This document shows positions 1-10,260 of a stretch of DNA of 10,846 nt, piece by piece (position 1 is the first letter of the stretch; each line of letters opens with the position of its first letter). A program made the position numbers and the translations under genes. The stretch comes from a virus. Where the stretch lies: UHGV virus genome UHGV-0335014. One strand, 5' to 3'. Below the pieces are notes generated by a model. The model did no database searches, was not told the DNA's origin, and worked only from the letters and a program-made list of their open reading frames with translations.

Positions 1-2706
1 ACGCTGAATGATTTTCTTGGTGCCATGACTGAGGATGATGTCCGTCCGGAGGCACTGCGCCGTTTTGAGCTGATGGTGGAAGAGGTGGCGCGTAACGCGT
101 CCGCGGTGGCACAGAACACGGCAGCCGCGAAGAAGTCAGCCGGCGATGCCGGCACATCTGCCCGTGAGGCGGCAACCCATGCGACTGATGCTGCAGGCTC
201 AGCACGCGCAGCCAGCACGTCAGCCGGACAGGCCGCTTCGTCGGCTCAGTCAGCGTCTTCCAGCGCAGGAACGGCATCAACAAAGGCCACTGAAGCGGAA
301 AAAAGTGCTGCCGCTGCAGAGTCCTCAAAAAGCGCGGCGGCCACCAGTGCCGGTGCCGCGAAAACGTCAGAAACGAATGCTGCAGCGTCACAAAAATCAG
401 CAGCCACTTCTGCATCCACTGCGACGACGAAAGCGTCAGAAGCCGCCACTTCAGCCCGGGATGCGGCGGCCTCAAAAGAGGCAGCGAAATCATCAGAAAC
501 GAACGCATCATCAAGCGCCAGTAGTGCCGCTTCCTCGGCAACGGCGGCAGCAAATTCTGCGAAGGCGGCAAAAACGTCCGAGACGAACGCCAGGTCTTCT
601 GAAACGGCAGCGGAACAGAGCGCCTCAGCTGCGGCAGACTCTGAGACAACAGCTGCATCATCGGCCCGTGAGGCGTCCATTAAGGCAGAGGAGGCAGCAG
701 TCAGTGCCACCGCCGCCGGAAAATCGGCAGAAAGCGCCGCATCATCCGCTTCAACAGCCACAACGAAGGCTGGCGAAGCCACTGAACAGGCCAGCGCAGC
801 AGCGAGGTCTGCTTCCGCAGCGAAGACATCCGAAACGAACGCGATAGCGTCGGAAACCAGCGCAGAATCCTCAAAAACGGCTGCCGCATCGTCCGCCAGT
901 TCGGCGGCGTCATCGGCATCATCGGCGTCTGCTTCAAAAGATGAGGCGACCAGACAGGCGTCAGCAGCGAGGGGCAGCGCCACGACGGCATCCACGAAGG
1001 CGACAGAGGCTGCTGGCAGTGCGGCAGCGGCAGCACAGAGCAAAAGTACGGCAGAATCCGCAGCAACGCGCGCCGAGACAGCAGCAAAACGGGCAGAGGA
1101 TATTGCATCCGCCGTGGCGCTTGAGGATGCGAGCACGACGAAAAAGGGGATAGTACAGCTCAGTAGTGCGACTAACAGCACTTCCGAGTCACTGGCGGCA
1201 ACACCAAAAGCCGTTAAGGCCGCGTATGACCTAGCTAACGGGAAATACACCGCACAGGATGCAACGACAGCACAGAAAGGGATAATCCAGCTAAGCAGCG
1301 CGACCAACAGCACGTCTGAAACGCTGGCGGCAACGCCAAAGGCAGTAAAAGCAGCCAATGACAATGCTGAGAAACGTCTGCAGAAAGATCAGAACGGTGC
1401 GGATATCCCTGGCAAAGATACCTTTACGAAAAATATTGGTGCCTGCCGTGCCTTCGGTGGGTCAGTAAGCACAACAACAGGAAACTGGACGACTGCACAG
1501 TTTATCGAGTGGCTGGATTCTCAGGGAGCATTTAACCATCCATACTGGATGTGCAAGGGTTCCTGGTCTTATGGCAATAATAAAATCATTACTGATACTG
1601 ACTGCGGTAATATTCATCTCGCCGGAGCTGTCATTGAAGTAATGGGGATAAAGTCAGCGATGACGATCCGCATTACCACACCGACCACCTCCACTGGTGG
1701 TGGAACAACTAACGCCCAGTTTACCTATATTAATCACGGAACAGATTATTCACCTGGCTGGCGAAGGGACTATAACTCCAGAAATAAGCCAACGGCATCA
1801 GAGATCGGGGCGTTACCGTCAGGTGGAACAGCAGTATCATCAGTTAATCTGGCTTCAAAAGGTCGGGTAACCGCGCTGACAGACAATACGCAGGGGGCAG
1901 CAGGTCTTGAGTTATACGAGGTGTATAACAACGGATATCCAACAGCGTATGGAAATATCATTCACCTGAAAGGGATGACAGCCGTTGGCGAAGGTGAGTT
2001 ACTCATCGGCTGGAGTGGTACAAGCGGTGCTCATGCTCCGGCATTTATTCGTTCACGACGGGATACGACCGACGCAAACTGGTCGCCGTGGGCGCAGCTT
2101 TACACCTCGGCTCATCCTCCTGCAGAGTTTTATCCAGTCGGTGCACCAATCCCGTGGCCATCAGATACCGTTCCGTCTGGTTATGCCCTGATGCAGGGGC
2201 AGACTTTTGACAAATCTGCATACCCGAAACTTGCAGTTGCTTATCCGTCAGGCGTGATCCCTGATATGCGTGGCTGGACGATTAAGGGCAAGCCCGCCAG
2301 TGGTCGGGCCGTATTATCTCAGGAACAGGACGGCATTAAATCGCACACCCACAGCGCCAGCGCATCCAGTACGGATTTGGGGACGAAAACCACATCGTCG
2401 TTTGATTACGGAACTAAATCCACAAATAACACCGGAGCACATACACACAACTTTGCTTACAACAATACTTCAGCATACGCAGAAACTCCCGGTACCGGTG
2501 GTGGAATGCATGCAACTAACACAAGAAAGACAGCAAGTAATCGCGTATTAAGCGCAGGAGCTCATACTCACACAGTAGCAATAGGTGCGCATACACATAA
2601 GCTCGCTATTGGTTCGCACACACACACCATTACCATTGCCGCTTATGGCAACGCGGAAAACACCGTAAAAAACATCGCATTTAACTATATTGTGAGGCTT
2701 GCATAA
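1..2706 (+). CDS. stf: Side tail fibre protein, 5'-truncated at the window edge (lambda Stf-like / P2 gpH-like). Ala/Ser-rich shaft with KTSETNA repeats, a lower-GC central module, and a His-rich HxH C-terminal region.
   Basis: Frame is open from nt 1 (no upstream stop), so the ATG at 25 is probably internal. From memory the translation closely matches lambda Stf (LNDFLxAMTEDD...[13 protein letters not shown] near the N-terminus; [14 protein letters not shown] motif; C-terminal PIPWPSDxVPSGY...[12 protein letters not shown]...[33 protein letters not shown] and the terminal [16 protein letters not shown]). The stop overlaps the tfa start as TAATG. Confidence 0.9.
361..842 (+). repeat. Ala/Ser-rich low-complexity shaft region of the tail fibre, with four dispersed copies of a K-T/S-SETNA coding motif
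   Basis: Near-identical 20-mers aaaacgtcagaaacgaatgc (361), aaatcatcagaaacgaacgc (488), aaaacgtccgagacgaacgc (570) and aagacatccgaaacgaacgc (823), embedded in GC-rich Ala/Ser codon repeats. Confidence 0.6.
1141..1356 (+). repeat. In-frame tandem duplication inside the tail fibre gene (two diverged copies of the segment encoding K/[28 protein letters not shown])
   Basis: Copy 1 starts at about 1141 (aaaaaggggatagtacagctcagtagtgcgactaacagc...), copy 2 at about 1273 (cagaaagggataatccagctaagcagcgcgaccaacagc...). The two encode nearly identical peptides with many synonymous nucleotide differences. Confidence 0.7.
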
Positions 2707-3305
2707 TGGCATTCAGAATGAGTGAACAACCACGAACCATAAAAATTTATAATCTGCTGGCCGGAACCAATGAATTTATTGGTGAAGGTGATGCATACAT
2801 TCCACCTCATACAGGTCTACCTGCAAATAGTACTGATATTGCTCCGCCAGATATTCCAGCTGGCTTCGTGGCTATTTTCAACAGTGATGAGGCATCGTGG
2901 CATCTTGTTGAAGACCATCGGGGTAAAACAGTTTATGACGTGGCATCAGGGGACGCGTTATTTATTTCTGAACTCGGCTCATTACCGGAAAATGTCACCT
3001 GGTTATCCCCGGAAGGGGAGTTTCGGAAGTGGAACGGCACAACGTGGGTGAAAGATGCAGAAGCAGAAAAAGTGTTCCGGATACGGGAGGCGGAAGAAAC
3101 AAAAAACAGCCTCATGCAGGTAGCCAGTGAGCATATTTCGCCACTTCAAGATGCCGTAGATTTGAATATTGCAACAGAGGAAGAAACATCGTTACTGGTG
3201 GCATGGAAGAAGTATCGAGTGCTGCTGAACCGTGTTGATACATCAAGAGCACCGGATATTGAGTGGCCAGCTTCCCCAGTGGAATCAAGGAGTAAACAAG
3301 CATAA
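2706..3305 (+). CDS. tfa: Tail fibre assembly protein (lambda Tfa / P2 gpG family chaperone)
   Basis: 199 aa beginning [44 protein letters not shown], which matches recalled lambda Tfa over nearly its whole length. Start overlaps the stf stop (translational coupling). GC-rich like stf. Confidence 0.9.
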
Positions 3306-3324
3306 AGGCTTTCATTTCAAACCA

Positions 3325-3348
3325 TTGTAGTCCAGTTTTTTGTATAGT
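3325..3348 (+). promoter_or_regulatory. Candidate sigma70-like promoter elements for the cargo gene (TTGTAG ... TATAGT)
   Basis: TATAGT (3343..3348) is a 5/6 match to the -10 consensus and TTGTAG (3325..3330) a 4/6 match to -35, but the spacer is only 12 bp, so this is weak. Placed in the 95-bp gap between the tfa stop and the likely ATG start. Confidence 0.2.
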
Positions 3349-3399
3349 ACCCTGCTCATTTCGGATGACATGTGTGATTTGGAATTTCAGGGTACCATT

Positions 3400-4578
3400 A
3401 TGAATGTTATTTCATCATTAAAACAGCTTAACAGACAGCGAAATATTAAAACAAAAAAGATAAAGACGAAGGCCAGACTGGCATTTCTAAAAATGCGATA
3501 CAGAAGGAAAACATCATTACAGCCGGATAGTTATAAAACAGTGTGCATTTTCATGCACATGCAAGCCATTGGTGACGGCATCGTTACCTCAGGGTTTATT
3601 AAACAACTTCAAAAATCCGGTATGGTGGTATATGTGATAGCACCTTCAAGAGTATCATTCCTCTTTACTGATATTGTTGGCGTGGATGCCTTTATATCTT
3701 ACGAGAAAAATAAATTTAACGAACTAAAAGCAAAGATAAAAAAACTGAATGTAGATCTTGTTGTTGACTTCTCAAATTTTGATAACACAGCGATAACCAG
3801 ATTGCAAACACTACATTTACTTAGACCTAAACACTCTATCTGTTTTAATCATCCTGCCGTAACTATTTTTGATACAAATATAATCGACAATCGTTCCATT
3901 CACACATCTGAAAGAATGAAAAAAGTTTTATCTTTACTAAAGATAAAAAATAATAATTATGCTGCAGCGCTTAATTTTGACAATAAAATATATGAGCCAG
4001 CAAATATTGTTGCAAATGAATTCAGGAAGAAAAACAAAAAATTAGTTATATTTAACCCTTATGGCTCTCAGAATAGCAGAACCTTATCTGATGAACAGAT
4101 AAACAAAGTACTAGCTTACCTTAATAACCTTAAGGGATATCACACAATAGTTTTTAATATGGGAAAACAGATTAATCATAATGGATTGGATAATGTGTCT
4201 CTATCTCCATTTTCTGATGCCGGATGTTCATTTGCATTGGTTCGCCATGCTGATTTTGTTATAACTGTAGATACTGCCATTGTACATTTAGCCAGTGCAT
4301 TAAACATTAGACAATACTGTATATATAATAACAGAATGCATGAAGGAAAATTCGAAAATAATATTGTGTGGGGGCCAAACAGCAAATTAGCGACTCAACT
4401 CACCACATCCGAACATCTAAGGTCTGAAGGGGGCGACGATATGCATAAATTCGACATAATGATCTTAATTAATGCTATCAAACAAGATTTGACAAACGAT
4501 ATACCGAATTACCACTCGGATTTAGGTTGTAAAAATAGATCCAGAAACCCAGAATTAGAAAGTAGCAATTCTTTATAA
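3400..4578 (+). CDS. AT-rich cargo gene: GT-B fold, GT9-like (ADP-heptose heptosyltransferase-like) glycosyltransferase with a Lys/Arg-rich N-terminal extension. Start is uncertain: TTG 3340 (ORF-track start), ATG 3370 or ATG 3400.
   Basis: Long ORF in a markedly AT-rich segment. Translation carries three motifs that line up with LPS heptosyltransferases WaaC/WaaF as recalled: an N-terminal IGDGIVTSGFIKQLQ (cf. IGPSWVGDxxxxxxLxxxLK), a central IFNPYGSQNSRTLSDEQ (cf. GFCPGAEFGPAKRWP) and FVITVDTAIVHLASALN (cf. IVTNDSGLMHVAAALN). An AGGG Shine-Dalgarno candidate lies 8 nt upstream of ATG 3400, and a TATAGT -10-like hexamer overlaps the TTG at 3340, which argues against that start. Confidence 0.7.
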   Translation: MNVISSLKQLNRQRNIKTKKIKTKARLAFLKMRYRRKTSLQPDSYKTVCIFMHMQAIGDGIVTSGFIKQLQKSGMVVYVIAPSRVSFLFTDIVGVDAFISYEKNKFNELKAKIKKLNVDLVVDFSNFDNTAITRLQTLHLLRPKHSICFNHPAVTIFDTNIIDNRSIHTSERMKKVLSLLKIKNNNYAAALNFDNKIYEPANIVANEFRKKNKKLVIFNPYGSQNSRTLSDEQINKVLAYLNNLKGYHTIVFNMGKQINHNGLDNVSLSPFSDAGCSFALVRHADFVITVDTAIVHLASALNIRQYCIYNNRMHEGKFENNIVWGPNSKLATQLTTSEHLRSEGGDDMHKFDIMILINAIKQDLTNDIPNYHSDLGCKNRSRNPELESSNSL

Positions 4579-4631
4579 AGTAGAAACCTCAACAGTTTTA
4601 TCAGGACCTACGATATATTATATAACAACAA

Positions 4632-4665
4632 GCCGCCCATTACCCAATATGAGGGTATTGGCGGC
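4632..4665 (-). terminator. Candidate intrinsic terminator closing the minus-strand tail operon after gpU; may also affect read-through from the plus-strand cargo gene
   Basis: Imperfect stem-loop GCCGCC-cat-TACCC / 8-nt loop / GGGTA-tt-GGCGGC (6+5 bp with a small internal loop), 9 nt beyond the U stop. On the minus strand it is followed by a T-rich tract (TTGTTGTTATATAAT). Lies in the convergent gap between the cargo gene and U. Confidence 0.35.
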
Positions 4666-4674
4666 AATGTAAAA

Positions 4675-5169
4675 TCAGAACAGTCCTTTAACTGAACTGG
4701 TCGCGCTGTTAAGAGATGATGTCACCTTATCTTTGAAGCCGGACAGCATATCGCTGAACGATGAGGATTGCAGGCGCTCCCGCAAATCCTCATCACAGCG
4801 TTCAAGGGTCAGTGAAAATTCTATCTTTTTCGCCTTACCGTAGCGATCAAACTCGGAACGGGTCGTATTCGTTCCGGTCAGGACATACATGCCGTAAATC
4901 TGCCCGACACCATCAATCAAAGGCCAGGGTCGTCCTGTATACGCCTGCGTGGTCAGCAGCGACAGCGACACTTCGCCACCTGTAATTTCAGGATAAAGCA
5001 CACCAGAAAGCACGATGCGATCATCACCTGCACCGATATACTGCCAGCTTGCTGAACGGTTAACGCGTTCATTTTTCACATGCCGCCAGCTTTTGTTTTG
5101 CTGTAACTGCTGATGCGGCAGCGTGCGCAGCTCAAAAACAAACATGCCGTAGATCATCATCATGGCCAT
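4675..5169 (-). CDS. U: Tail protein gpU-like (P2 U family), last gene of the tail operon
   Basis: 164 aa ORF immediately downstream of the tape measure gene on the same strand, which is the canonical position and size for gpU. A GAGGAG Shine-Dalgarno overlaps the T stop. Start may be the ATG at 5163 (the third Met) rather than 5169. Confidence 0.7.
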   Translation of the reverse strand: MAMMMIYGMFVFELRTLPHQQLQQNKSWRHVKNERVNRSASWQYIGAGDDRIVLSGVLYPEITGGEVSLSLLTTQAYTGRPWPLIDGVGQIYGMYVLTGTNTTRSEFDRYGKAKKIEFSLTLERCDEDLRERLQSSSFSDMLSGFKDKVTSSLNSATSSVKGLF

Positions 5170-5175
5170 GACTCC

Positions 5176-8019
5176 TCAATCTTTATCGTAAAAACTTCCA
5201 CGCCCGGCACGGGCGCGCCGTTCCATTTCTGCCCTGACCATTTCACCGACCAGTTTCGCCAGTTCGCGGGGATTCTGCGTAACAACGTTATGCAGATGAA
5301 CATGAATTTCACCGCCAAATCCGGAGGCAACAGGCTCCCGGTTACGGGAAGTTGCAGGAACTGATGCCACTGGCGATCGTATGGCCTCTGCCACCGGGCG
5401 GGAGCTGGCCGCAACAACAGGGACCAGCGCCGGAGACAGCGGAGCCGGAACCACAGGTGTGATATTAATTGCGGGGGCAGGCTTACTGACCTGCGCAATC
5501 TTCCGCTCCTGCCACTCCCCACGAACAGCAAGTGCGCGGGGCAGGTTCTTAAAGACAATATCGCCGAGGCCAATGCGTTTTTTCGTCTCATCAACCAGCT
5601 TACCTGTGTTATCAGCAATTTTGCTGAGTCTGCGTAGCGTACCGGTATTGCTGTCTGTGAGCGGTTTGTTGTCTTTGGGTTTATCACCTCCGGTGCCATT
5701 GCCATTTTCCACAGGCTTCGGCGGATTGATTTTCGCCAGGTCCCCCTGAAGCAAGGCAACCTTGTCCTGAAGAATGGCCGCACGCTGTGCGTCTTCGATT
5801 TTCTTGCGCGCCCTTTCCGCTTCATCCGGAAGCACACCGAGCTTTTCAAGTATCCACGCCAGCGTATCCAGCAACATTTTTGCAGGTGTCAGAACAAGTT
5901 GTAACGCACCGCCAAGAACGTTACCGAATATCTCGCCAGCACTGGTACATTTATCCAGCGTTTCCTTGCTGGACTCCATCGGTGACAGCAGCGATTTAAA
6001 CCAGTTAAACACCTGGCTGATCCCACTCCCGATTGCGTCAAAAACAGGACCAAACCGTTCAAAGGTTTCGCGCAACGGGGTCAGCCTTTCCATAATCCCG
6101 CTGAACACCCCGGCAAAAAATGCCCTGATGGGATCCCAGTATTTCCAGATAAGAACGGCAGCTCCGGCAAGCGCAGCCACGATAAGACCAACCGGACTGA
6201 ACAACGCCCCGATAGCGCCTCCCAGTAAAGAAACGGAACCCGTCACCATTCCCCACAGCGCAGGCAACACCCTGACGACATTCATTGACCGGGTAAGAAT
6301 GTCAAAACCAAGACGCAGGGTGGCCAGCTTCCCGTAAAGCACCCCAATAACCAGCGACAACGAGCCAATCGTTGCAGTCATTGCCAGCAGTGCACCGCCT
6401 GCAATCAGTAGCTGGCGCGTCAGTGCGGGATGGGCCTGCGCCAGCGCCGTCACCTTTGATACCACACGCGTGAGCCACTGCGTGACAGAACGCAGCGGAC
6501 CGTCAATCAGATCTGCAATGCGGATGCGCAACCCTTCCCATGCACTGCTGAGTGATTTCAGATCGCCGTCAAGGTTGTTGGCCATAACCTTTGCCGTGCG
6601 TTCAGCCTCACCGCGCGCCCCTTCAAGTTCTTTTCTCAGTTTGGGTAAGGAGCCGTCACCAGCCGCATCAACGAGGGCCATAAATGATGTGAAAGCCTCT
6701 TCTCCGGCAATGTCCTTAAAGAACGATACCCGGTCAACTTCCCCGTATTTGCGGGTAGCTTTATAAAGGTCAGCCAGCACATCCTCCATCGGGCGCATTT
6801 TGCCCCCGGCATCCGAGACAGACACGCCAAGCTCTTTCAGCGCCTCTGCTGCCGCCTTTGGCGGTGATGCCAGACGAGCCAGGCTGGCACGCATTGCCGT
6901 CCCGGCATCACTCCCTCTGATACCCATATTCGCCAGCACGCCCGCCATCGCTGCGGCCTGCTCCAGCGATATTCCCAGCTTACCCGCCACCGGACCTGCA
7001 TATTTCATGGTTTCGCCCAGCGCGCGAAGGTCAGTGTTAGTACGGGTAAACGCTGCTGTAAGCGTGTCACCGACCCGGTCCATCTGGTCAGCGGAGAGGC
7101 CGAACTGCGTCAGGATATTTGAGCCAATATCCGCCGTCTCGCCAAGGTCCATACCGCCAGCCGTTGCCATGCTCAGCACGCCCGGAAGCGCAGCCTGAAT
7201 GGCCTGCGGTGTGAAGCCAGCCATTGCAAGAAATGCCTGCCCACTGGCGGCATCGCCTGCGGTGAACTGCGTTTCAGAGCCAAGTTTTAACGCCTGCTCA
7301 CGCAGCGCCTTAAACTGCGGGCTGTTTTTGTCGATTCGCGTCAGTGCCTGAACGCGGGACATCTCTTTCCCGAACCCGATCGCAGGCTGCAAAAAACGCC
7401 CGGCAGCATAGCCGCCCGCCGCTGCCGCACCAATTGCCAGCGCACCACCTGTTTTCAGTTTTCCCGCTGTTTCCTGCGCGCGCGAATACCGCTCACGCGC
7501 CCGTGTTACACGCGCAAGCGCCTGCCGTTCGCGTTCAAGCTGGTTGTTGTACTGTTCGGTGCGTCTGATGGCCTGCTGGATGGTGTTATCGCTGCCTGTC
7601 AGGGAAATGCCGTGGCGTTTCAGCTCTCCGCCAAGCTCCCGCATTTTCTGAATTTCCCGTGTGCGCGATTCATTCAGGCGTTCAAGCCGGGTGCTTAACT
7701 GCTGCATCAGCTTTTGTTGTTTTTCGCTGAGCACTGTACCCGTGCGTTGTAACTGATTAAGGGCGTTAAGCTGGCGTCGTGCTTTCACGATGCCCGCATC
7801 CGCTTTACTGACAGCGTCACGGGCGCGCTCAAATGATCGCGCCTGACGCTCGAGATTTTTGATCGCCCCCTGCGTTCGCTGGATGGAGTCACCAAACTGC
7901 CCCATCAGGCGGCGGGCGTTTTCGGCAGGCCGGGTCAGCCTGTCAACGGCGCTGAAAGCGACCCGGATATCAAGAGTCTTCATTGTCTGCATTCCCGCTA
8001 CGAAGTGCCGCCCGCTCAC
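5176..8019 (-). CDS. T: Tail tape measure protein (P2 gpT-like)
   Basis: 947 aa. N-terminal region is rich in coiled-coil-like, charged sequence (RQLNALNQLQRTG...QQLSTRLERLNESRTREIQKMRELGGELKRHG), followed by Gly/Ala-rich and hydrophobic segments (LLIAGGALLAMTATIGSLSLVIGVLYG; GGAIGALFSPVGLIVAALAGAAVLIW), all typical of tape measure proteins. Sits between the E/E' chaperone genes and gpU. The ORF-track start is a GTG at 8019; ATGs at 7992 and 7983 are alternatives. Confidence 0.85.
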   Translation of the reverse strand: MSGRHFVAGMQTMKTLDIRVAFSAVDRLTRPAENARRLMGQFGDSIQRTQGAIKNLERQARSFERARDAVSKADAGIVKARRQLNALNQLQRTGTVLSEKQQKLMQQLSTRLERLNESRTREIQKMRELGGELKRHGISLTGSDNTIQQAIRRTEQYNNQLERERQALARVTRARERYSRAQETAGKLKTGGALAIGAAAAGGYAAGRFLQPAIGFGKEMSRVQALTRIDKNSPQFKALREQALKLGSETQFTAGDAASGQAFLAMAGFTPQAIQAALPGVLSMATAGGMDLGETADIGSNILTQFGLSADQMDRVGDTLTAAFTRTNTDLRALGETMKYAGPVAGKLGISLEQAAAMAGVLANMGIRGSDAGTAMRASLARLASPPKAAAEALKELGVSVSDAGGKMRPMEDVLADLYKATRKYGEVDRVSFFKDIAGEEAFTSFMALVDAAGDGSLPKLRKELEGARGEAERTAKVMANNLDGDLKSLSSAWEGLRIRIADLIDGPLRSVTQWLTRVVSKVTALAQAHPALTRQLLIAGGALLAMTATIGSLSLVIGVLYGKLATLRLGFDILTRSMNVVRVLPALWGMVTGSVSLLGGAIGALFSPVGLIVAALAGAAVLIWKYWDPIRAFFAGVFSGIMERLTPLRETFERFGPVFDAIGSGISQVFNWFKSLLSPMESSKETLDKCTSAGEIFGNVLGGALQLVLTPAKMLLDTLAWILEKLGVLPDEAERARKKIEDAQRAAILQDKVALLQGDLAKINPPKPVENGNGTGGDKPKDNKPLTDSNTGTLRRLSKIADNTGKLVDETKKRIGLGDIVFKNLPRALAVRGEWQERKIAQVSKPAPAINITPVVPAPLSPALVPVVAASSRPVAEAIRSPVASVPATSRNREPVASGFGGEIHVHLHNVVTQNPRELAKLVGEMVRAEMERRARAGRGSFYDKD

Positions 8020-8508
8020 GCCAGCTAACCACTTCGCCGGGCGTCATCATGAAGATTTCGGCGGGCGACCAGTTAAAAATGGCGGCAATATCCGCCACCA
8101 GATCTTCGATGTGCTCAAAGCACACCAGGGTGATTACGCTGCCGTCTCCTGCACGCTCTTCGCGCCAGAGTCTGGCTCGCTCATAAAATTTACAGCCACA
8201 GCGCACAACTGAATAAAATCGCGTGACGACATTTTTTTAATCATCACTTCATCCAGTCGTGGCGAGGTCACGCGAGGCAACAGCGTAAACATGGTATCCG
8301 CTTTCAGATTCAGCACATCAGACAGCGACAGACCACGCAGGGATCCAGCCTGCTCAATAGCCCCGGTGATCTCCACATACGTGATTTTTTCGCCACCACG
8401 CTCAATTGGTCGGGTCAGTTTTACGCCACGTTCGACAGCCATATCCTCACCTGCCGTCACATCATCCGCCACGGTGTTATTCCGGGTTTCAGTATCGATG
8501 TCTTTCAT
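7970..8508 (-). CDS. E+E': Predicted E+E' fusion product made by a programmed -1 translational frameshift at an A7 tract (minus-strand 8238..8232); E' portion ends at 7970
   Basis: The -1 frame relative to E is open from just after a TAA at 8242..8240 down to the stop at 7970. On the minus strand the E frame reads ATT AAA AAA ATG across a run of seven A (plus-strand T7 at 8232..8238). The E' reading frame overlaps the start of T. Conserved strategy in P2-like and other long-tailed phages. Confidence 0.5.
8134..8508 (-). CDS. E: Tail assembly chaperone gpE-like (P2 E family), zero-frame product
   Basis: 124 aa ORF between the tail tube and tape measure genes, with a strong AAGGAG Shine-Dalgarno 7 nt upstream of the ATG at 8508. 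Its 3' end is overlapped by a -1 frame ORF that runs on to 7970, the arrangement expected for the E/E+E' frameshifted chaperone pair of myovirus tails. Confidence 0.75.
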   Translation of the reverse strand: MKDIDTETRNNTVADDVTAGEDMAVERGVKLTRPIERGGEKITYVEITGAIEQAGSLRGLSLSDVLNLKADTMFTLLPRVTSPRLDEVMIKKMSSRDFIQLCAVAVNFMSEPDSGAKSVQETAA

Positions 8509-8563
8509 CAGTTGTCTCCTTTTCAGTCAGAGGCGACGCACTGCGCCGCCTGCATATTACTTA

Positions 8564-9076
8564 TCAGCCAAGCCCAAGCGCGGAACGGATACGGTCAGGC
8601 ACAATGTCCTTGCCGTCCTTCCGGTAGATGTGGTTCAACAGGTCGATTTCCCACAGCGGGCGATCGTTAACGCTCAGCTTGTAGTAGGTGTTTTTGACAG
8701 CGTAAGTGTGTGATGTGGCTTCGCCCTGTTTGGCTTCCCCCATATCAATTTCCGTCACACGCCCGCGCATCTCGATTTCATACAGATCGCTTTCTGCATC
8801 GGTGTAGTATTCACCCGCAAAACGCAGCAGCGTGCCGTCAATCGTGCCGCCATATTTAAGGAACAGCGCACGAACAGCTCCCCCCATGACAAAACTCGCA
8901 TCAAGCGCGGAGTCGTCCAGACCGAGATCAATACTTACCGCCCCCATCATGCCACCACCACGATAGCTGTCGGTTTTGCGCGTCAGTTTGGGCGGCGTGA
9001 CGGATGTCACTTTGCCCACTTCGTTTTCACCATCCACAAACAACGTAAAAAAGCGAAGATGTTTTGGTACAGCCAT
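8564..9076 (-). CDS. FII: Tail tube protein (P2 gpFII-like)
   Basis: 170 aa ORF directly downstream of the sheath gene, with the start overlapping the sheath stop (minus strand ..TGATG..) and a GGGAGGTG Shine-Dalgarno. Size and position match gpFII (about 172 aa in P2). Confidence 0.8.
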   Translation of the reverse strand: MAVPKHLRFFTLFVDGENEVGKVTSVTPPKLTRKTDSYRGGGMMGAVSIDLGLDDSALDASFVMGGAVRALFLKYGGTIDGTLLRFAGEYYTDAESDLYEIEMRGRVTEIDMGEAKQGEATSHTYAVKNTYYKLSVNDRPLWEIDLLNHIYRKDGKDIVPDRIRSALGLG

Positions 9077-10260
9077 CAGGCACCTCCCAGCACCGCAAAT
9101 GCGGGACCAAAGAATTCATCAGTAAACGTCTGGTAAAGCTCCATGTCTTCCAGTGGCGGAACGGGCGTATATTTGTAGCGAATACGCACACGTCCCTGAC
9201 GTAAATTCGTGGTGCCGTTATCCACCACGTCATACCAGCACTCCGCACCAATCAGTTTCCCGGCAGTAACCAGCGAATCCAGTTTTGCCCTGATGGCGCT
9301 GATAACATCCTTCACGTTCGCAGGTGTCAGTGGACTGTCGATGGTTTCAAACTGCGCTTCCGCAATTGAATCAGCCAGCACCTGTGCGGTTCGGGTATAC
9401 ACCTCAAAGATGTAGGCGTTCGTTTCCGGTGTGCGGTTGCCCCAGAAGCGGAACCCGTTGCGACGAATAATGGTCGTGATTTCTTTGTTGTTGAGGCTGT
9501 TGGCATCACTGTCTTCGGCCTGCAACGACCAGAACACATGCCTGGACATTCCCAGCACATTTTTAACCGGAACGTTGGACAGCGATTTGTGCCAGCCCTG
9601 CTCATGGTCAATGTACGCACGAAGGCCGCACGCATAAGCAGGCGCGGGGAACGTTTCGTTTTTGCCACTTTTCGGGTTGTAGGCGATGAAGTCAGGCCAT
9701 AAGAGCATCACCTCACGTTCGTTGAATTTCTGGCGGTAGGTAATCGCCTCAGCCATCGTGTTACAACCATGACATGTGGCATACACAAACGCGCGCAGTT
9801 TACCCGCAATCACGCACAGGGATTTTGTCACCGCCTCCGTGTCCAGCTCCGGCGCGGCCAGAATACGCGGACGGTATCCGATGCTTTCATCCTGCTCTGC
9901 AACAAGCAGCGCATACATCCCCGTATAGCTGCCGTCAGATTCAGAACCACCGATAACCAGTTGATCCTGCGTTTTTCCGTCTTCTTCTTTGTGTTCAGCC
10001 ACGCGAACGACGATCACCTTTGTGCTCACCTGGTCTGCGATGGCCTTAAGCGCACGATAAAGCGTCCCCGTTGTTCCGCATTTTCCCAGCACGTCATTGA
10101 CGCGGGTCAGCAATGTGGGCTTGTTCAGCGGGAACAGCTCCGCGTCCGCATCATCCGCCGTTGCCACGATACCGATAACGCTGGAATCAACATCGTTAAT
10201 CGCTGTTACCAGGTCGGTATTTTCCGTAACACGGGCACCATGAAAACGAGTTTCACTCAT
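9076..10260 (-). CDS. FI: Contractile tail sheath protein (P2 gpFI-like)
   Basis: 394 aa. Conserved blocks recalled from P2 FI and sheath homologues: AELFPLNKP, GTLYRALKAIADQ, KLRAFVYA, YRQKFNEREVMLLWPDF, HEQGWHKSLSNV, GFRFWGNRT, VYTRTAQVLAD, YKYTPVPPLE. Confidence 0.9.
   Translation of the reverse strand: MSETRFHGARVTENTDLVTAINDVDSSVIGIVATADDADAELFPLNKPTLLTRVNDVLGKCGTTGTLYRALKAIADQVSTKVIVVRVAEHKEEDGKTQDQLVIGGSESDGSYTGMYALLVAEQDESIGYRPRILAAPELDTEAVTKSLCVIAGKLRAFVYATCHGCNTMAEAITYRQKFNEREVMLLWPDFIAYNPKSGKNETFPAPAYACGLRAYIDHEQGWHKSLSNVPVKNVLGMSRHVFWSLQAEDSDANSLNNKEITTIIRRNGFRFWGNRTPETNAYIFEVYTRTAQVLADSIAEAQFETIDSPLTPANVKDVISAIRAKLDSLVTAGKLIGAECWYDVVDNGTTNLRQGRVRIRYKYTPVPPLEDMELYQTFTDEFFGPAFAVLGGA

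Follow-up and report, generated by a model that had tools for sequence, protein, structure and literature searches.

Several prophage systems that alter the bacterial surface lie close to tail fibre genes. The gtrABC and oac cassettes of the Shigella Sf phages and P22 modify lipopolysaccharide (LPS) and have an atypical guanine-plus-cytosine (GC) content. They occupy the region that separates int/att from the tail-fibre end of the late operon, and their expression in the lysogen masks the receptor of the phage itself. Receptor masking is also the task of Llp of T5, encoded beside pb5, and of Cor of phi80 and N15, encoded after the fibre genes, both of which are small lipoproteins that block FhuA. 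On the enzymatic side, the CAZy family GT9 (PF01075) includes WaaC, WaaF and WaaQ as well as the bacterial autotransporter heptosyltransferases (BAHTs), such as TibC and Aah, which are cytoplasmic enzymes encoded next to the gene of their repetitive, Ser-rich substrate. BAHTs are defined by an N-terminal β-barrel (residues 1–97 in TibC), a β-hairpin thumb, a four-cysteine iron finger (C339, C342, C358 and C370 in TibC) and a dodecameric ring (PMC4358343). Here, we describe a GT9-type glycosyltransferase gene, referred to below as the GT9 gene, that directly follows the tail fibre genes in a 10,846-nucleotide (nt) stretch of the virus genome UHGV-0335014 (the window, meaning the whole stretch analysed), identified by sequence comparison as the tail region of an Escherichia coli P88-like (Xuanwuvirus, P2-type) prophage. 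An earlier note on this DNA had drawn an analogy with BAHTs and put forward glycosylation of the adjacent fibre; we think it probable, though well short of certain, that the gene is a horizontally acquired prophage moron whose product acts on host LPS and not on the tail fibre.

The locus resembles each of these systems in part. A GT9 gene in a Mu-like prophage of Providencia rettgeri (L019; individual loci are referred to by L numbers) shares exactly the gtr/oac placement, the order being tfa (tail fibre assembly gene), GT9, GT2, DinI and int. Whereas Gtr systems add a bactoprenol-linked sugar to O-antigen with a periplasmic GT-C enzyme, the gene in the window encodes a single GT9 enzyme, which would be cytoplasmic and probably act on lipid A-core before its export. 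Llp and Cor are comparable as instances of superinfection exclusion linked to a fibre or receptor-binding module, but the GT9 protein is an enzyme, with a presumed connection to a receptor. With WaaC, WaaF and WaaQ it has the D-T-x-x-x-H donor motif in common, and some of its homologues lie inside waa loci; it differs from them in its low identity (about 12–15%), its additional N-terminal extension and its prophage location. It belongs to the same superfamily as the BAHTs and is, like them, predicted to be cytoplasmic, but it is without their β-barrel, since a helix (residues 3–33) is followed by a regular Rossmann N-lobe in the AlphaFold2 (AF2) model, and without their iron finger, since no cysteine is invariant or nearly so in an alignment of 21 family sequences. 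No autotransporter gene was found among the annotated or scanned neighbours in the inspected phage and non-phage loci.

Fold and family of the GT9 enzyme

The GT9 gene (3400–4578, + strand) encodes a protein of 392 residues and starts at ATG 3400 rather than at an upstream TTG, as judged from the conserved N-terminus in the family alignment. Its identification as a glycosyltransferase in the earlier note holds: residues 206–312 match Pfam Glyco_transf_9 (PF01075) weakly, at 26.9 bits against a cut-off of 22 (E 3.7e-6). The AF2 model, which was computed from 21 homologues and is confident (pLDDT 89), consists of a basic 31-residue helix (residues 3–33) and a regular GT-B fold with two Rossmann domains, which is most similar to solved GT9 structures and, among these, closer to WaaC/WaaF than to TibC. 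G58-D59, R227 and D291-T292...H296 are invariant in the 21-sequence alignment. The donor motif (VDTAIVHLA in the window) aligns in a marginal profile match to WaaC residues 261–266 (D261-T262-G263...H266), the ADP-heptose site, and G58-D59 we take to correspond to the catalytic D13 of WaaC. These catalytic motifs are invariant across homologues that are 38–98% identical. A basic N-terminal extension of 45 residues, which is additional to the WaaC, WaaF and WaaQ architecture, is likewise conserved, and the basic helix predicted within it would fit a membrane-proximal acceptor.

The family is a divergent, separate GT9 subfamily. Searched directly against PDB chains, the sequence gave no glycosyltransferase match, and the family profile searched against PDB did not find TibC at E<=10, giving only the marginal match to the WaaC donor motif. 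The sole match in PHROGs is to an unannotated family (phrog_36326), and tblastn against a phage database returned only two distant matches, from Campylobacter phages, at 23% identity. Neither this protein nor any GT9 gene adjoining a fibre gene was described in the literature searched; the literature searched on the P2 hotspot made no mention of tail fibres or glycosyltransferases, and one of these papers concerns a hotspot with old/tin. A role in glycosylating DNA, an idea raised by the basic helix, was rejected in view of the chromosomal homologues in waa and O-antigen loci; the fact that no DNA base-modification genes were seen beside the inspected copies was also counted against it.

Relatives in lipopolysaccharide loci

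The family is small, comprising 34 clusters at 90% identity, and its non-phage relatives (28–55% identity) are located in LPS or polysaccharide loci. Those at 54–55% identity (L009 and L018) lie directly upstream of waaA-coaD together with GT4, GT8 and 3-deoxy-D-manno-octulosonic acid (Kdo)-kinase genes, with no phage nearby, and two Citrobacter-type homologues at 46–47% identity (L010 and L021) lie between asmA and galF, where they form the head of the O-antigen cluster. Orbaceae copies are accompanied by GT2, GT8, GT9, PF00884 sulfatase-family and rml genes, those of Anaerobiospirillum by rml and acyltransferase genes, and a further copy (L056) is found near a gene with a Wzy_C O-antigen-ligase domain. 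By guilt-by-association, these contexts provide strong support for a putative LPS or glycan acceptor. Judging from sequence, the core oligosaccharide is the most likely acceptor and ADP-heptose the most likely donor.

Selection and retention in defective prophages

GT9 alleles that differ by 2–4% show ratios of nonsynonymous to synonymous substitution rates (dN/dS) of 0.13–0.27, that is, purifying selection. The gene is present in 49 of 5426 complete E. coli genomes and its open reading frame (ORF) is intact in 48 of them, the remaining copy (H89) being broken by an insertion sequence (IS) element; among the loci from other bacteria, the L041 copy has an internal stop. Intact copies include those of four of the seven E. 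coli prophages inspected, in which the fibre is split by an IS element, large deletions extend from head to baseplate, or only a remnant of the prophage is left. Outside E. coli, two independent deletion fusions, one of portal to fibre tip and the other of terL to fibre tip, each have an intact GT9 gene immediately downstream. A function that requires a virion would not be preserved in this way in virion-defective prophages.

Large deletions that join a head gene (portal, terL, head completion or capsid) to fibre or gene I but spare the GT9 gene downstream recur in E. coli and Providencia-type loci (L028 3893–5824, L044 2417–4783, L024 7087–8308 and L008 5219–6193). The L028 copy seemed at first sight to follow a portal gene; this assignment was rejected, as Pfam shows the upstream ORF to be a portal::fibre-tip deletion fusion. 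A lone family member with a GC content of 0.31–0.33 lies at dusA, between zur and dusA (L054 3980–5113 and L055 759–1898), with no phage genes beside it; the integrase of the L019 prophage also lies at dusA, and the lone copy may be all that is left of a decayed prophage.

Recurrent linkage to fibre modules

In six distinct phage lineages, and in all inspected E. coli copies, the GT9 gene is always found directly after a fibre or tfa gene, and this adjacency is not due to chance; the synteny is real and recurrent. The gene follows fibre/tfa in the E. coli P88-like prophages and in an E217-like prophage of Providencia stuartii (L003 and L041), the fibre gene itself, with no tfa, in P. alcalifaciens-type prophages (L004, L005, L044, L053 and L028), and tfa in the P. 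rettgeri prophage described above; on two short contigs (L026 and L027), tfa C-termini lie upstream of it. The backbones involved are P2-like, E217-like and Mu-like. The fibre–GT9 link proposed in the earlier note is thus borne out as far as adjacency goes, whereas a common Ser/Thr-rich fibre acceptor is not found: the fibres that precede GT9 differ in tip type, in the presence of tfa and in composition, with a Ser plus Thr content between 13.8% (L003) and 25.9%.

In several Providencia prophages, the GT9 gene is paired with a GT2 or a hexapeptide acyltransferase gene, as would be expected of a glycan-building cassette, which suggests that the pairs are two-enzyme glycan-modifying cassettes. 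The partner genes are convergent with GT9 (L019 6144–7118, L004 11167–11733, L044 6158–6724 and L053 5153–5716, all on the − strand), and the acyltransferase assignment is based on a weak Hexapep match of 22.8 bits.

A variable slot behind tfa

In the window, the fibre gene, tfa and GT9 follow one another on the + strand and a − strand tail operon converges on GT9. The earlier description of GT9 as co-oriented and about 95 base pairs (bp) past tfa is accurate, the gap between the tfa stop (3305) and ATG 3400 being 94 nt. The gene is contained in a cargo block of about 1.4 kb (3272–4667), whose left edge is the end of homology to cargo-less tfa genes and whose right edge adjoins the start, at 4668, of homology to the backbone of PhiR44_2, P88 and P884B11. 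The block coincides with a drop in GC content, to 0.31–0.37 across the GT9 ORF (about 33%) compared with 0.45–0.60 in the flanks, and no terminal repeats were found flanking it. In P88, P884B11 and PhiSM the same slot is occupied by an alternative fibre tip and a tfa gene, both on the opposite strand, and by a DNA invertase gene, while the window has GT9 and no invertase; in PhiR44_2 the slot is without cargo and measures 254 bp. Since its content differs among relatives, the position after tfa is a variable, recombinogenic slot of this phage group, and the cargo is a discrete accessory block of atypical GC content within it, as is typical of a moron. The G|FI (Z/fun) slot of P2 is at the same position, directly after tfa, as is the invertible fibre cassette of P88. 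This type of cassette, which is similar to the Mu G segment, spans 2917–5065 in P88 (L046), 676–3143 in PhiSM (L047) and 3323–5234 in P884B11 (L048).

The tail fibre and its assembly protein

The fibre gene (1–2706, + strand) is open in frame 1 from the first base, so that the gene does not begin at the ATG at 25 but is truncated at its 5' end by the window edge. The encoded protein is made up of an Ala/Ser/Thr-rich shaft, two Phage_fiber_2 repeats (PF03406), a Collar domain (PF07484) and a His-rich tip. PF08400, the 'prophage tail fibre N-terminal' domain of lambdoid type, is represented only by its end (profile positions 93–134), over the first 42 residues. The earlier note had pointed to Ser/Thr-rich repeated motifs in the shaft, and composition and motif counts agree: Ala makes up 35% of the first 380 residues, Ser 20.5% and Thr 11.6%, and KTSETNA occurs three times, KSSETNA once and SSATNSTSE twice, the last being an ordinary Phage_fiber_2 repeat. 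The likeness that the note had seen between this shaft and β-rich autotransporter passengers is not borne out by a single-sequence AF2 model, in which the shaft is all α-helix, whereas autotransporter heptosyltransferases modify a β-helix; the model is of low confidence (pLDDT 64), and the evidence is correspondingly weak.

The tfa gene (2706–3305, + strand) encodes a gpG-like tail fibre assembly protein (Pfam Caudo_TAP, E 1e-44). Many E. coli genomes without a GT9 gene have lambdoid stf/tfaQ regions that match positions 1–3271 at 95–97% identity; homology to these cargo-less tfaQ loci stops at 3271, inside tfa, and the last 11 tfa codons (3272–3305) fall within the cargo block. The fibres of GT9 carriers are 582, 703 or more than 893 residues long and have only the tip in common (from 2126 or 2607 in the window). 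In other carriers of the gene, homology of the P88-like fibre to the window is confined to the part from 1142, 2126 or 2607 on, and positions 1–4700 are not contiguous in any complete E. coli genome of the collection. On sequence grounds, the window fibre looks like a lambdoid-stf::P88-like recombinant with a 5' part (1–1141) of the lambdoid Stf type. An Rfam match to IS009 (RF02111; 187.7 bits against a gathering threshold of 117) at 3049–3247 on the + strand is located wholly within the tfa coding sequence, and probably reflects the origin of that Rfam family in prophage tfa genes rather than a separate RNA gene.

Expression signals

Between 3305 and 3400 a consensus scan found no + strand terminator and RNA folding found no GC stem followed by a U-run, in line with the earlier observation that no strong terminator separates tfa from GT9. 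Transcription could therefore continue from the late fibre operon into GT9, which would then be transcribed with the late fibre genes, as had been suggested. A candidate promoter consists of a −10-like hexamer TATAGT (3343–3348, + strand) preceded by TG (TG-TATAGT at 3341–3348); it has no acceptable −35 element and was not called by the consensus scan, while both TATAGT and an upstream TTGTAG are conserved next to a homologue that is 76% identical (L026). The 5' untranslated region (UTR) forms a stable hairpin (3344–3398, + strand), which is recorded as an inverted repeat (I7), appears in both the minimum-free-energy and the centroid folds, and overlaps the −10-like box with its 5' arm, which pairs with the Shine-Dalgarno sequence AGGG (3389–3392) in the 3' arm. 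Transcripts that begin upstream, late read-through included, would consequently have an occluded ribosome-binding site, whereas a transcript starting at about 3355 would not contain the 5' arm and could be translated; the hairpin may thus serve to keep read-through transcripts from being translated. Hairpins of like layout with other arm sequences are found in L026 (about 170–205) and in L003/L041 (L003 about 9958–10000; 53% identity), compared as independent folds because the four UTRs could not be aligned in register with MAFFT. In L019, a GC hairpin and a TATAAT box lie between tfa and GT9, where the scan gave only chance-level matches.

A GC-rich hairpin (4632–4665) lies between the converging stops of GT9 and gpU, just outside the P88 backbone homology. 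Its fold z-scores are −3.25 on the + strand and −2.8 on the − strand, and a U-rich tail is present on the − strand only; it is likely the terminator of the − strand tail operon and possibly acts in both directions.

Proposed function and alternatives

We propose that GT9 is a cytoplasmic, membrane-peripheral enzyme that would be expressed in the lysogen and would attach a side-branch sugar to newly forming lipid A-core on the cytoplasmic side of the inner membrane. A surface epitope or phage receptor would be altered as a result, leading to lysogenic conversion and possibly to superinfection exclusion. The receptor of the P88-like phage PhiSM is the LPS outer-core GlcIII (PMC6456863). As to the site after tfa, the end of the fibre module is the variable slot of these phages, and fibre/tfa modules are exchanged between phages more readily than other parts. 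A further plausible reason is functional, in that a module that binds a receptor would be coupled to an enzyme that masks one. Several observations weigh against such an LPS-directed role. Along with the low Pfam score, the NCBIfam equivalog scores are far under their cut-offs (22.9 against 185.3 for WaaC, TIGR02193; 24.6 against 467 for WaaQ, NF007742), so that the protein is not an orthologue of WaaC or WaaQ nor, as far as can be read from these scores, of any characterised core transferase. PADLOC defence models gave no match to it. The consensus scan found no convincing sigma-70 promoter upstream of GT9, and with neither promoter nor terminator, expression could be mainly late and hence ill-suited to LPS remodelling. 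Furthermore, invariable fibre/tfa linkage in six lineages is more than a generic moron slot would predict, and leaves room for a direct fibre-related role.

The most direct such role, suggested by the earlier note, is that GT9 glycosylates Ser/Thr residues of the adjacent fibre or Tfa in the cytoplasm during late growth, in the manner of a BAHT, and thereby alters host range or antigenicity. Virion glycosylation has a precedent in mycobacteriophages, the topology is compatible as both proteins are cytoplasmic, and the gene order fits, with GT9 co-oriented 94 nt past tfa, no terminator detected between the two, and every phage-borne copy found lying directly after fibre/tfa on all three types of backbone. 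We nevertheless consider this role very improbable. The enzyme has neither the β-barrel nor the iron finger of BAHTs, its N-terminus being a helix and no cysteine being conserved in the family; relatives at 54–55% identity reside in waa loci away from any phage; the Ser/Thr/Ala-rich shaft is common, at 95–97% identity, in prophages without GT9, while other fibres preceding GT9 are not Ser/Thr-rich (L003) and have differing tips; and prophages whose fibre is split or deleted still have an intact GT9. The predicted helical, not β-helical, shaft (at low confidence) and the ribosome-binding site that the predicted fold occludes in read-through transcripts point the same way. Modification of the fibre by a BAHT-like enzyme is thus contradicted by the missing β-barrel and iron finger, the loci of the relatives, the spread of the shaft and the persistence of GT9 beyond the fibre. 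A broader version, in which phages of Gram-negative hosts recruited GT9 for O-heptosylation of the fibre tip or Tfa, would explain the adjacency in six lineages and on at least three unrelated types of backbone, and we give it just as little credence. A different view of the same linkage is that GT9 is a functionless hitch-hiker on the recombinogenic 3' end of tfa. The left junction within tfa (3271/3272), the IS-disrupted copy (H89) and the internal stop (L041) agree with this, but it is hard to reconcile with purifying selection, an intact ORF in nearly all E. coli carriers (48/49), catalytic motifs that are invariant across homologues as little as 38% identical, and preferential retention of the gene in deletion remnants, and we regard it as highly unlikely.

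Two further alternatives accept a glycan acceptor and differ in timing or target; we judge both to be unlikely, if less so than a role in the fibre or no role at all. GT9 could act on LPS or an envelope glycan yet be expressed mainly by late read-through, masking the receptors of the lysing cell and of its fragments, which would otherwise trap virions on their release. The absence of a detected tfa–GT9 terminator and of a clear promoter would suit late expression, as would the position of the sole strong hairpin (4632–4665) after GT9, and P88-like phages do bind the LPS core (PMC6456863). Set against this, the 5'-UTR hairpin would sequester the Shine-Dalgarno sequence precisely in transcripts started upstream, LPS synthesised during a single lytic cycle would account for little of the outer membrane, and the persistence of the gene in remnants that cannot be induced points to a benefit in lysogeny. 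Alternatively, the acceptor could be another envelope glycan (an O-antigen unit, enterobacterial common antigen or capsule), or the donor could be other than ADP-heptose, a doubtful but not far-fetched reading given the Citrobacter-type homologues that head an O-antigen cluster, the Anaerobiospirillum copies with rml and acyltransferase genes, and the great divergence of the family from WaaC, WaaF and WaaQ. The core is nonetheless favoured as acceptor by the closest non-phage homologues, which are inside waa core loci beside waaA, and ADP-heptose as donor by the conserved ADP-heptose-type donor motif and by the fact that the characterised GT9 members in the searches (WaaC, WaaF, WaaQ and TibC) are heptosyltransferases.

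Implications for surface conversion

If GT9 does modify the LPS core, a cytoplasmic GT9 route would be added to prophage surface conversion, the known routes of which act on O-antigen through glucosylation by Gtr or acetylation by Oac. Many coliphages, P88-like phages among them, use the LPS core as their receptor, so that a mobile 1.4-kb gene that modifies it could then shift phage susceptibility, with a bearing on phage therapy and phage typing; in the carriers of GT9, roughly 1% of E. coli strains, serum or antibody recognition could change as well. The strict fibre linkage suggests joint transfer of receptor-binding and receptor-masking functions. The novelty, which we consider modest, would lie in a GT9-type prophage surface conversion that is consistently coupled to fibre modules.

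Neighbouring tail genes

The remainder of the window is dominated by a P2-type tail operon on the − strand (4675–10260), which encodes the FI sheath, FII tube, E, T tape measure and U proteins, with Pfam matches to Phage_sheath_1, Phage_tube, Phage_TAC_7, PhageMin_Tail and Phage_P2_GpU. The Xuanwuvirus phages P884B11, PhiSM and P88 match this operon at 97–98.6% identity. In several loci gpD is annotated as 801 nt long with a 93-nt pseudogene fragment upstream (L001 28064–28917, L022, L023 and L008 at about 16265–17118), compared with 1101–1110 nt in OkiPb01714 and PhiR44_2; the short gpD may be a lesion common to one lineage of GT9-carrying E. coli prophages. The window itself contains the start of gpD, which appears intact (from about 10400 on, + strand).

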